A stretch of DNA of 64,000 nucleotides, taken from sequence record PQ567651.1; one strand, given 5' to 3'. Shown piece by piece: positions 22,793-26,379 of the stretch; the stretch's first letter is position 1; each line of letters starts with the position of its first letter. Made by a program: the position numbers and the translations under genes. This DNA comes from Escherichia phage cardinal. The notes under the pieces are model-generated. The model did no database searches. It was not told the origin of the DNA and saw nothing but the letters and a program-made list of their open reading frames with translations.

Positions 22793-23743
22793 ATGATTGC
22801 ATTTTACGCTAATAAACTGGAAGTTAAAAAAGCAGCAGAAGAGATGGGTATCCTGCATATTCTTAATGAAGCAATTCACAAAAGTTTTGGTTACACATCT
22901 GAAGCAGAAATCAATGATCTGATTCATAGTGTTAATGACTTGTTCTTCTATCCTAACTTCCTACAGCAATTAGATGGTTGTGGATTTGAATATATGGAAC
23001 TTCACCCTGAATACACATTTATGGAAGTAACACCTGAAGGTTTTCTGGAGATTATTCGTACTGAATATCTTGCCAACGAGGATAAAGAAATGGATATGGT
23101 TGCAAAAGTACAACTGACTGTGCATAATACGTGTTTCCTGGATACTAGTGCAACGGAAGAAGATATTAGTTATCTGCTTTCCGTTTGTAATCCGCATTGT
23201 CCACAACCACATTGGAAAGATGCAGACCATTATCTAACATATTCAACTGAAGAAAACATTACTTTCTTCGATGAAAACAGTGGTATTAATGGTGCACATA
23301 AGAATTCTCCATATAGGAAAGATCGGTTTGTAGTTGATGTAAAAACATTTACTAAACTGTTTGAGGAGTATTATTCAAAAAATGAAAGTAAGACTGAATC
23401 TTCACCAAAACCACGTTTTCGTCGTCCACGTAAACCTGTGCCTACTCGTTCTGTAAGTTATGTTCGTATCATTTACACTACGCAGCAGGTATATACTCTT
23501 AAGAACGTAAGCACTCTTACTGTACAAGAAGATGTAATTAATATTGTGCGTAATAATGTTATTACAGAGGGTATTGAGGAAAAGATTATGTCTGTTATCG
23601 ATCCTAAACTTGTTATGGCAATCATTATTAATGAACCAAAAGGTGTAACAACATTGTTCCGAAATATTCATGGCACTTGGGAAACTCAAGTTGACGGTTT
23701 GACTTCTGACGGTTGTACACGTATTACCAAAAACCTTGACTAA
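22793..23743 (+). CDS. hypothetical protein
   Basis: 316-aa ORF with AAGGAG RBS; no recognisable domain; terminator downstream. Confidence 0.55.
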   Translation: MIAFYANKLEVKKAAEEMGILHILNEAIHKSFGYTSEAEINDLIHSVNDLFFYPNFLQQLDGCGFEYMELHPEYTFMEVTPEGFLEIIRTEYLANEDKEMDMVAKVQLTVHNTCFLDTSATEEDISYLLSVCNPHCPQPHWKDADHYLTYSTEENITFFDENSGINGAHKNSPYRKDRFVVDVKTFTKLFEEYYSKNESKTESSPKPRFRRPRKPVPTRSVSYVRIIYTTQQVYTLKNVSTLTVQEDVINIVRNNVITEGIEEKIMSVIDPKLVMAIIINEPKGVTTLFRNIHGTWETQVDGLTSDGCTRITKNLD

Positions 23744-23832: not shown

Positions 23833-24690
23833 ATGACCCAAAAACTATATGAGGATGTAATCGGATTCCTCGAACAAACATCCGAAGAATTTACTCGTGA
23901 AAATGCAAACAAACCTGCAATGATTGTTAATACTCACCGAGATTTACTAGCAGGTATCCTAAGCAAGCACATGGCAATGACCCATATTTTACCTGAAGAT
24001 TTAGCAGAATGGCATAAAAGTGGGTATGGTCACATCCACGATTTAGATTATTTACTCTCACCTTTAACTAATTGTTGCCTGGTAAATTACCAAGATATGC
24101 TTGAGAACGGTTTCCGTATTGGTAATGCACATATTGAAAAACCAAAATCTATCGGTGTAGCGACTACTGTCCTAACTCAAATTATTCAAGCAGTAGCTTC
24201 TAGCCAATATGGTGGACAAACTTGTGCACATGTTGATACTGGGCTTAGTCAATACGTTAAAGCAAGTTTTAATAAAATATATGCCGATGTTGGCGATTAT
24301 GATATTGCTATGCGTATGGTAGATAAACAGGTCTATGATGCAATGCAAACTTTAATCTACCAGGTGAACACTCTAATGAGTGTAAATGGTCAGTCACCTT
24401 TTATAACAATTAGTTTAGGTTTGGATACCTCTGCTTTTGGTAGAATGATCACTAAAAACTACCTAATGGTGCACAAACAAGGATTGGGAAAAGATAGGGT
24501 AACTCCTGTGTTTCCTAAAGTTATCTTCTTCTTGGAAGATGGTGTTAACATGAAAGCTGGCGATCCAAACTATGATTTGAAGCAACTGGCAATGGAGTGT
24601 TGTGCTGAACGCATTTATCCTGATTTTATCTCTGTACCTTTAAACAAAGAAGTTACAGGATCTTCAGATGGTCGCGTCACAAGCATGGGT
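23833..24690 (+). CDS. nrdD: anaerobic ribonucleoside-triphosphate reductase, exon 1
   Basis: Aligns with E. coli NrdD from NENANK...RDLLAGI through GDPNYDLKQLAMEC to ...VTGS...MG; exon ends on U after the Gly codon. Confidence 0.85.
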
Positions 24691-24970
24691 AAACTATAAC
24701 TGCTCATGTAAAATCTGCCTAAACGGGGGAACTCTCAACGAGACAATCCCGTGCTAAACGTAACAGAACTCCCAACACAGAAGAAGGGGGGTACTATTAC
24801 GAAATGCCTAACGACTAGCTGTGATGAATGTAGCAGCGTAGGGTGTAAGCCTATGACACCCCAAATGGTAGACATGCTTTAAGCATGAAGATATAGTCTG
24901 ATCTGCATGGTGACATGCAGCAGCACGTAATGGTGCGGGAGTGGCCTTGCGAGCCACTTTGAACATAATG
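24691..24970 (+). mobile_element. group I self-splicing intron (ORF-less) in nrdD
   Basis: 280 nt separating two NrdD halves that sit in different frames; core element ctaaacgggggaactctc...gacaatcccgtgctaaa closely resembles the phage T4 td/nrd intron core; 5' exon ends in U and intron ends in G. Confidence 0.75.
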
Positions 24971-25912
24971 TGTAGAAGTTTCTTGTCATACTATGCAACA
25001 GAGCAAGGTGAAAAATATGATGGTCGTTTCAACTTAGGCGTAGTTTCTTTAAACTTACCTATCATTGCAGCAGAGTCCCGTGAAAAGGGCATCTTATTTA
25101 CTGAACTGTTGGAACAACATATGGAGATGGCGTATAAGGCACATATGCTACGTGTTAACCGTATTAGACATACCAAAGCATCTCAAAACCCTACATTGTT
25201 TATGGAAGGGGCTTTAGCTCGACTAGAAGCTAATGAAGAGATTGGTAAACTATTTGAAGGTGGTTATGCCTCTATTAGTATCGGTTATGTAGGTTTAGCA
25301 GAAGCTATGGAGATTTTATACCCAAATAACACCAATCCAAAAGCAATGGGTAAAAACATCCTTCAATATATGAAGGATATCTGTTGCACATTTAAAGAAC
25401 GTTCTGGTTTAGCTTTTAGTTTGTATGGAACACCAGCAGAATCCTTGTGCTATAAATTTGCCAAAGCGTTAAATGATCGCTATCCTGGCTCTATTGATCG
25501 TGACTATTTGACAAACTCTTTCCATCAACCTGTATGGATGCACACTACCCCGTTCCAAAAGTGGGATTATGAGGAAGGTTTTGCACAAATTAGTAATGGT
25601 GGGAACATAGGTTATGTAGAAACACCAAACCTTAAAAATAACTTGCAAGCACTGGAAACTCTTGTAGATTATGCCTACAATAAAATTCCTTATTTTGGCG
25701 TGAACCAACCTGTAGATCAGTGTTTCAAATGTGGTTTTCATGGTGAATTTAAGGCAACAGCTAAAGGCTTCGAGTGTCCAAGTTGTGGAAATCATGAAGA
25801 AGAATCCATATCTGTGATCAGAAGAGTGTCAGGATACCTTTCTGCTCCTAACTCTCGCCCTTATAATAAAGGTAAGATGCAAGAGGTACTAGAAAGGGAG
25901 AAACACTTTTGA
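24971..25912 (+). CDS. nrdD: anaerobic ribonucleoside-triphosphate reductase, exon 2
   Basis: Begins CRSFLS (E. coli MGCRSFLG), contains NLGVVSLNLP, the C..C...C..C zinc ribbon and glycyl-radical motif RRVSGYL. Confidence 0.85.
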   Translation, partial: CRSFLSYYATEQGEKYDGRFNLGVVSLNLPIIAAESREKGILFTELLEQHMEMAYKAHMLRVNRIRHTKASQNPTLFMEGALARLEANEEIGKLFEGGYASISIGYVGLAEAMEILYPNNTNPKAMGKNILQYMKDICCTFKERSGLAFSLYGTPAESLCYKFAKALNDRYPGSIDRDYLTNSFHQPVWMHTTPFQKWDYEEGFAQISNGGNIGYVETPNLKNNLQALETLVDYAYNKIPYFGVNQPVDQCFKCGFHGEFKATAKGFECPSCGNHEEESISVIRRVSGYLSAPNSRPYNKGKMQEVLEREKHF

Positions 25913-26379
25913 ATTACGCCGGATATGAACCTGTTGACATGCTCAACGGTGACGGTGTAAGATGCTCTTTGTGGGTGAGCGGTTGTAGCCACGGTTGCCG
26001 TGGCTGCTTTAACCAGAAAGCCTGGTCGTATAACTACGGACAAGAGTTCACTGCTGAAACATTAGATCTTATCTTGGAAGATTTATCTCGACCTTTCATT
26101 AAAGGATTAACAGTTTTAGGTGGTGAACCTCTTGACAAAGAGAACATTGACACTGTAGAGTATGTTCTTGAGAAGGTAAGAGATTGTTTTGGAAACAAAA
26201 AAGATATTGTCTTATATACAGGATATCTTTTTGAAGAAATTCCAGAGAAAATTAAAAAACTGGTTGACATAGTGATAGATGGTAAGTATGATATGAATCA
26301 ACCAACAACGAAACGTTATAGAGGTTCAGATAATCAACGAATGTGGGTTAAGAAAGACAACATTTGGGAATCTGACTAA
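25909..26379 (+). CDS. nrdG: anaerobic RNR activating protein (radical SAM)
   Basis: CSLWVSGCSHGCRGCFN cysteine-cluster motif; immediately downstream of nrdD; TTG start overlapping the nrdD stop. Confidence 0.8.
   Translation: MNYAGYEPVDMLNGDGVRCSLWVSGCSHGCRGCFNQKAWSYNYGQEFTAETLDLILEDLSRPFIKGLTVLGGEPLDKENIDTVEYVLEKVRDCFGNKKDIVLYTGYLFEEIPEKIKKLVDIVIDGKYDMNQPTTKRYRGSDNQRMWVKKDNIWESD

Follow-up and report, generated by a model that had tools for sequence, protein, structure and literature searches.

Organization of the nrdD locus

The window analysed here is a 64,000-nucleotide stretch of Escherichia phage cardinal (PQ567651.1), and all positions refer to it unless another record is named. At the locus under study, the ribonucleotide reductase gene nrdD lies in two pieces separated by an insert, and it is followed by nrdG:

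23833 to 24690, plus strand: nrdD exon 1, 286 codons, ending S-M-G (AGC ATG GGT) on U24690 and matching T4 NrdD residues 5-289.
24691 to 24970, plus strand: group I intron, 280 nt, with IA2-type architecture, no endonuclease gene, and G24970 as omega G.
24971 to 25912, plus strand: nrdD exon 2, 313 codons plus stop, opening TGT AGA AGT TTC TTG TCA (C R S F L S).
25909 to 26379, plus strand: nrdG (activase), overlapping the nrdD stop codon, as annotated in phi92.

Upstream of nrdD there is also a 316-aa ORF (22793-23743), which the phi92 RefSeq record names "ribonucleotide reductase" while its note says hypothetical protein.

The ATG-initiated ORF of exon 1 spans 23833-24699: the insert starts AAA CTA TAA, and the stop codon TAA at 24697-24699 is reached after two codons. 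The exons occupy frames 0 and 1; once 23833-24690 and 24971-25912 are joined, they form one ORF of 599 codons. The spliced 599-aa product aligns end-to-end with T4 NrdD (PDB 1H78) over residues 7-598 (T4 residues 5-604, E = 1.6e-164), and the alignment is gapless at the junction (...vtsMGCRSFLSyy versus ...vspMGCRSFLSvw in T4 NrdD). In T4 numbering the junction falls at G289/C290, directly ahead of the codon for the finger-loop cysteine, which we take to be residue C290 of T4 NrdD. Exon 2 holds this codon at its start, together with the Zn-ribbon cysteines and the C-terminal RVSGY glycyl-radical motif. Indeed, MGCRSFLS, CFKCG...CPSCG, and RRVSGYL come together on one chain only after splicing, and the features of a class III ribonucleotide reductase NrdD (full-length homology, finger-loop Cys, Zn ribbon, and glycyl-radical motif) are all present. 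In NrdD, the reaction is started by a conserved cysteine located in the finger loop (PMC4493059).

The original prediction described two NrdD halves in different frames, separated by a 280-nt gap with no ORF, whose joining restores the MGCRSFL segment. The coordinates 24691-24970 proved exact, the joined exons gave one 599-codon ORF that is gapless against T4 NrdD, and the intron, predicted to be ORF-less, contains no ORF above 52 aa and no Pfam match, just a seven-codon remnant. No endonuclease-sized ORF was found in 24691-24970, the longest being 43 aa on the plus strand and 39-52 aa on the minus strand. We do not regard the 43-aa GTG ORF (24751-24882) as a mini-protein, given that it lacks a Pfam match and straddles a deletion junction described below. 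An intein was ruled out, since the insert length is not a multiple of three and a stop follows two codons on in the exon-1 frame.

Our main reading, to which we assign a probability of roughly 90%, is that nrdD is interrupted at G289/C290 by a 280-nt endonuclease-deleted group I intron whose splicing would yield the 599-aa NrdD.

Intron boundaries and previous annotation

The window comes from a phi92-like Justusliebigvirus (Stephanstirmvirinae), and the 20 kb around the intron are 98-98.7% identical to arall, VEcB, UAB_1, and phi92. A 600-nt "spliced" sequence used as query matched 54 Justusliebigvirus records at an identity of at least 98%. The match was uninterrupted in 31 of the 54, which are intron-less (e.g., EC.P2, inny, muut, and alia); in 18 it fell into two pieces 279-290 nt apart, and in the remaining 5 the pieces were 769-770 nt apart. 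The nrdD gene of EC.P2 and the spliced sequence of the window are colinear at every codon, with 24 differing positions and a single amino-acid change.

In the phi92 record (NC_023693 / FR775895), genes 192 and 193 are accompanied by a two-part joined CDS, 192A, labelled "spliced variant." It is spliced at the same junction and encodes an identical protein (CCF23320.1 / UniProt I7IDU2, Phi92_gp192A). Thus, the boundaries 24691-24970 are confirmed both by the intron-less sister genomes and by the phi92 joined CDS and, since the phi92 record annotates it, the junction was already known. The papers covered here on rV5, on T4 mobile elements, on the T4 genome, and on phage ribonucleotide reductases do not mention an intron at the C290 site of nrdD. 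Most GenBank records of these phages break nrdD into two or three pieces or call it a "hypothetical protein," where a single joined CDS is correct.

The phi92 intron belongs to the same genus, gene, and junction and is likewise ORF-less. It is 99.3% identical to that of the window, with a length of 279 versus 280 nt: the window copy has an extra G and a G-to-A change in the P6a remnant, with no functional distinction between the two. OZ035770 has an intron with 100% identity to that of the window.

Ribozyme structure and covariation

A group I intron had been predicted here, and a covariance-model search agreed. The whole 64-kb window was scanned against Rfam at gathering thresholds, and the sole match was to RF00028 (Intron_gpI) at 24645-24920, which covered the model over its full length (1-253) with 72.3 bits (cut-off 50 bits) and E = 2e-16. 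No tRNAs were found in the window. The Rfam boundaries were rejected, as they include a spurious P1 within the exon and leave out P9.1 and P9.2; the true ends, 24691-24970, are fixed by the intron-less alleles. We therefore use a hand-built P1-P10 model of 72 pairs in 14 helices, in which P3-P9.2 are listed as 5' strand/3' strand:

24684 to 24708, plus strand: P1, exon CAUGGGU (24684-24690) with internal guide GCUCAUG (24702-24708) and a U24690.G24702 wobble at the splice site.
24694 to 24698, plus strand: P10 5' strand, CUAUA, pairing with exon-2 UGUAG (24971-24975).
24714 to 24898, plus strand: catalytic core, from the hand model, covariation, and the MFE fold.
24714-19/24867-72, plus strand: P3, core.
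24723-28/24747-52, plus strand: P4, core.
24733-36/24740-43, plus strand: P5, core.
24753-54/24806-07, plus strand: P6, core.
24759-63/24797-801, plus strand: P6a, core.
24813-17/24894-98, plus strand: P7, in a pseudoknot with P3.
24818-21/24834-37, plus strand: P7.1, with compensatory changes.
24841-46/24856-61, plus strand: P7.2, with compensatory changes.
24873-77/24883-87, plus strand: P8, core.
24903 to 24958, plus strand: peripheral 3' helices P9, P9.1, and P9.2, from the model and the MFE fold.
24903-09/24914-20, plus strand: P9, with a GUGA loop.
24923-26/24933-36, plus strand: P9.1.
24940-45/24953-58, plus strand: P9.2.

The hallmarks of a group I intron are present, namely an exon/guide P1 with U.G, an omega G, P10, and a pseudoknotted P3/P7 core. 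The loop of P1 is 11 nt long and includes the P10 partner; the stop codon of the exon-1 frame also sits inside this loop, two codons into the intron.

Covariation was assessed on an alignment of eight sequences (window, phi92, PD06, 18-1-2, SYGMH1, JSE, Vibrio 184E37.1, and T4 sunY), with the endonuclease ORFs cut out and Ns in place of the ORF-bearing loop of T4, which is presumably P9.1. Across these homologues, the 72 modelled pairs were paired in 95.9% of cases. Changes on both sides of a pair were found in 28 pairs versus 10.4 ± 2.3 after shuffling (0 of 500 shuffles reached 28), and in a slid control, in which the 3' partners were moved by 1-3 columns, at most six pairs were double-changed. 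P1 was 100% paired in all eight homologues and shows a compensatory change in JSE, where exon base -7 is C-to-G and the guide base G-to-C. Similarly, a P7 pair changes from U-A to C-G in 18-1-2, while P7.1, P8, and P9.2 are almost totally rebuilt between lineages. P10 is just 5 bp long and 3 nt away from P1, and its cells were 82.5% paired in the MAFFT alignment; Vibrio 184E37.1 has a compensatory P10, with exon UGCC facing a GGCA that adjoins the guide. Furthermore, the unconstrained MFE fold (-85 kcal/mol, z = -2.9) contains all the helices except the pseudoknotted P7.

Relationship to the T4 introns

The original prediction compared the core to the T4 td/nrd group IA2 introns. This resemblance stood: over intron positions 12-231 the window intron is about 70% identical to the nrdD (sunY) intron of T4, and along J8/7-P7'-P9 it matches the T4 td intron exactly for 33 nt. 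Among the three T4 introns, sunY is the closest and interrupts the same host gene. Its guide GCUCAUG is identical to that of the window intron, and its P3-P9 architecture, including P7.1 and P7.2, is the same and can be aligned column by column; J8/7, P7, and J6/7 are invariant with T4 sunY in the eight-sequence alignment. The T4 sunY intron self-splices. By its P7.1 and P7.2 and its homology to the T4 introns, the window intron can be assigned to subgroup IA2, a type (T4 td, nrdB, and sunY, with P7.1 and P7.2 between P7 and P3') reportedly defined by Michel and Westhof in 1990.

Conversely, orthology with the T4 nrdD (sunY)/I-TevII intron was rejected because the insertion sites differ: T4 sunY is inserted after nt 538, in codon 180, whereas the window intron lies between codons 289 and 290 in T4 numbering. 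The coding content differs as well. The T4 sunY ORF is the GIY-YIG gene of I-TevII, located near the intron 3' end after P9, whereas the relatives of the window intron carry an HNH gene in P6a; the window intron has no ORF and hence no GIY-YIG gene in its 3' periphery.

Homologous ribozymes are also found outside nrdD. In Aeromonas phage 4L372D, whose record lists two terminase CDSs, an ORF-less IA2-type homologue appears to split the large terminase gene (about 1918-2200 of the extracted locus) a short way upstream of the FVGFDELTHF motif.

Loss of the endonuclease gene

Endonuclease-containing forms of the intron, inserted at the same MG/CRS site as in the window, were found in VEcB, arall, SD2, and phiWec187, in the Phapecoctavirus phages nieznany and nepoznato, in the Vequintavirus SYGMH1/FV3 group, in JSE, and in Vibrio phage 184E37.1. 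Outside the ORF, their ribozymes are 77-100% identical to that of the window, and exon 2 starts with TGTAGAAGT in all of them except the Vibrio phage (TGCCGA). They carry in P6a a gene of 169-173 aa of the HNH / I-HmuI-NUMOD type, which the window intron has lost. The intron measures 769-770 nt in VEcB, arall, SD2, and phiWec187, where the P6a loop holds a 169-aa ORF; its product contains HNH_3 and I-HmuI NUMOD-like domains (Pfam), with both scores slightly under the cut-offs in the phi92 group and the NUMOD-like domain above it in the JSE homologue.

In these long introns the ORF is preceded by a leader ending in ACAGAACUCCCAACACAGAAGAAGGGGGUACUGAUAUG, in which ACUCCC is predicted to pair with GGGGGU and mask the Shine-Dalgarno run. 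Two remnants of the gene were recognized in the window intron:

24764 to 24796, plus strand: endonuclease leader remnant, with the hairpin ACUCCC/GGGGGU at 24768-73/24787-92, identified by comparison with the VEcB and phiWec187 introns.
24798 to 24818, plus strand: last seven endonuclease codons, TAC GAA ATG CCT AAC GAC TAG (YEMPND*).

The YEMPND* codons double as the 3' strand of P6a, J6/7, and the 5' strand of P7; being encoded by the ribozyme core, they are kept in the JSE and Vibrio proteins and also in the ORF-less window intron. The remnant hairpin (24768-24792) would occlude the Shine-Dalgarno run that served the lost gene, and I-TevI also has an RBS-masking hairpin of this kind. A similar RBS-masking hairpin, that of T4 mobE, is named in the title of a reference in PMC2993671.

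Removing 490 nt from the phiWec187 intron (TACTG/ATATG to TTCTG/TTACG) gives the phi92 intron. The junction in the window reads GGGGGGTACT/ATTACG, that is, the phi92-type deletion on a six-G (VEcB-like) background plus the G-to-A change adjoining the junction. In comparison with phi92, this change breaks the distal P6a pair (C.A mismatch), and the extra G lies in the remnant hairpin. PD06, ECGD1, and AMO3598 (290 nt) have another junction, GAAGAAGGG/TTATGATTATGAGTTCTG, and keep 3' coding sequence of the ORF, which in PD06 is TATGATTATGAGTTCTG. Since the phi92-type and PD06-type junctions differ, the endonuclease gene was deleted at least two times in the genus.

According to this reconstruction, the ancestor was a 769-nt intron with a 169-aa HNH / I-HmuI-like gene in the P6a loop, and a deletion of about 490 bp took the gene, leaving the leader, the Shine-Dalgarno hairpin, and the last seven codons. 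The opposite direction, in which the 280-nt intron never had an endonuclease and its relatives gained one by invasion of P6a, seems improbable to us. Invasion of ORF-less introns by endonuclease genes is a known process ("collaborative homing" is treated in PMC2988022), and the 252-nt introns of 18-1-2 and TH18, with a minimal P6 hairpin and no trace of a gene, could represent such an ancestor. However, the window retains exactly the leader and Shine-Dalgarno hairpin found ahead of the ATG in VEcB and phiWec187, PD06 retains 3' coding sequence at a different junction, and two junctions indicate two deletions rather than one insertion.

The homing-endonuclease gene, the mark of autonomous mobility, is missing from the window intron and present in VEcB and phiWec187. 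No free-standing copy of the lost endonuclease was found in the 64-kb window by tblastn with the relatives' endonuclease, the only weak match (24741-24815, E about 1) corresponding to its last few codons. The window intron is thus a degenerate, non-autonomous mobile element: having lost the endonuclease gene, it is unable to home alone, and it persists because nrdD can be restored only through an exact deletion. Comparable introns are those of T4 nrdB (truncated I-TevIII) and of Aeromonas phage 25 gene 43, which self-splice and have lost autonomous mobility, and such endonuclease-defunct introns may be mobilised in trans (PMC2988022; PMC2993671). These two lie in host genes other than nrdD.

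The kind of element is an ordinary one, a phage IA2 group I intron in a ribonucleotide reductase gene whose homing endonuclease gene was lost. Group I introns in such phage genes, the loss of their endonucleases, and the targeting of catalytic residues all belong to textbook knowledge. What the genus adds is the homing-endonuclease life cycle displayed among closely related phages, with 31 empty records, 5 with the gene, and 18 gene-deleted.

Splicing and continued production of NrdD

We infer that the window intron splices by the guanosine-dependent pathway and does so in vivo. After transcription, the 5' exon CAUGGGU would bind the guide GCUCAUG to form P1, with U.G at the splice site, and an exogenous guanosine held in P7 would attack after U24690. 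P10, formed by CUAUA in the P1 loop, would align exon-2 UGUAG; the 3'-OH of exon 1 would then attack after G24970, producing one mRNA that encodes the 599-aa NrdD.

A first alternative is that the ribozyme has been inactive since the P6a deletion and that nrdD is a pseudogene here. The deletion did alter the P6a extension, the window has a C.A mismatch atop P6a, and the related phage V18 is frameshifted at the nrdD locus. Moreover, growth under aerobic laboratory conditions does not require nrdD, which could allow an intron unable to splice to last for a while. Against this, none of the core helices or joining regions is damaged, and all are the same as in the endonuclease-containing copies; in addition, homologues differ freely in how long the P6a extension is, the shortest being a 4-bp hairpin in 18-1-2, TH18, and T4 sunY. 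Both exons also show strong purifying selection: between the nrdD genes of the window and PD06, whose introns were shortened by separate deletions, there are 34 synonymous differences and 1 non-synonymous difference, the latter not in exon 2. This 34:1 pattern would fit ongoing production of full-length NrdD, and we consider an inactive intron very unlikely.

Another alternative is a split gene without splicing, in which each half is translated on its own and the two polypeptides come together as an active enzyme, the intervening RNA being irrelevant. Separate translation of exon 2 is conceivable from the sequence because an in-frame TTG at 24947, with GGGAG 5 nt upstream, and an in-frame AUG at 24968-24970 are found at the 3' end of the intron. 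The AUG that ends the intron, in frame with exon 2, is kept in five of five lineages with the C290-site intron, while T4 sunY ends in UUG. Many GenBank records give two CDSs, phi92 lists an RBS motif for the downstream one, and the separate halves of the mobE-split NrdA of Aeromonas phage Aeh1 reportedly form an active enzyme. This alternative is nonetheless hardly credible, as a complete group I ribozyme, constrained at the level of covariation, fills the gap, the P9.1/P9.2 stems enclose the putative RBS and start, the break would hit the finger loop directly ahead of the radical cysteine, and intron-less alleles encode the same single polypeptide.

Distribution and horizontal spread of the intron

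Beyond Justusliebigvirus, the MG/CRS site of nrdD is occupied in the Phapecoctavirus phages nieznany, nepoznato, and 536P1; in the rV5-like Vequintavirinae, with the endonuclease in SYGMH1 and the FV3 group and without it in 18-1-2 and TH18 (252 nt); in the T4-related, RB49-like Krischvirus JSE; and in Vibrio phage 184E37.1. The Phapecoctavirus intron is 98.6-99.0% identical to that of the window, whereas the flanking 600 nt of exon are just 78-79% identical. The search that gave this intron identity found roughly 600 homologues. This difference between about 99% for the intron and about 79% for the exon points to a recent horizontal transfer (homing) between the genera. Overall, one intron has spread horizontally to the same catalytic-site codon in at least four phage lineages.

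Judging by the layout of its record, Vibrio phage F99 probably also holds an insert at the MG/CRS site. Its nrdD is in four pieces, with two inserts that contain HNH endonucleases (312-1241 and 2012-2518 of the extracted locus). As the inserts are separate, what lies upstream of the probable C290-site insert in F99 would be either another intron or a free-standing endonuclease gene.

The first codons of exon 2 differ between occupied and empty alleles. In intron-containing alleles from three lineages exon 2 opens TGT AGA AGT, and in intron-less relatives the same codons are TGC CGT AGT (EC.P2), TGT CGT AGC (Phi1), or TGC CGG AGT (rV5). The constant difference, with all changes being synonymous, is the Arg codon, AGA with the intron versus CGT or CGG without it; the Cys and Ser codons differ in some lineages only, and Phi1 keeps TGT and has AGC in place of AGT. 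No intron-less record matching a spliced junction at 100% was found. UGUAG can pair with CUAUA in P10, while the intron-less UGCCG(U) cannot. This codon split would fit co-conversion during homing, selection for P10, or both, and TGT AGA versus CGT/CGG could show whether a homing site is sensitive or immune.

The guide GCUCAUG and an identical 22-nt 5' core are common to the C290-site intron and T4 sunY at codon 180, and the 5' exon ends similarly at the two nrdD sites (AUGGGU at C290 and AUGAGU at T4 codon 180). Given the shared guide, the shared 5' core, and the similar exon ends, one may speculate that a single intron lineage switched nrdD sites by guide-directed reverse splicing. It is equally a speculation that the exon-2 signature could decide which alleles are invaded and whether ORF-less copies are mobilised in trans by co-infecting relatives that carry the endonuclease. 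The joint proposal, with a guide-directed jump between nrdD sites and a P10/homing-site signature governing invasion and trans-mobilisation in co-infection, is tentative, and we would put it at well short of an even chance.

At the site of the intron, phage V18 (KY683736, 80724-80965) reads ATGGGATATGTAGAAG, which is 2 nt longer than a clean junction. V18 keeps the intron-associated exon tract TGTAGAAG, has a second frameshift upstream, and has no CDS annotated at the locus; either an imprecise loss of the intron that gave a pseudogene or a sequencing error would account for this state.

Finally, the nrdD of four "Campylobacter phage" records, A150, A145, C3, and A110a (MG065639, MG065645, MG065656, and MG065689), is more than 99% identical to that of phi92-like coliphages, and other "Campylobacter phage" records are rV5-like. 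The Campylobacter host label looks doubtful and may reflect contamination or mislabelling.
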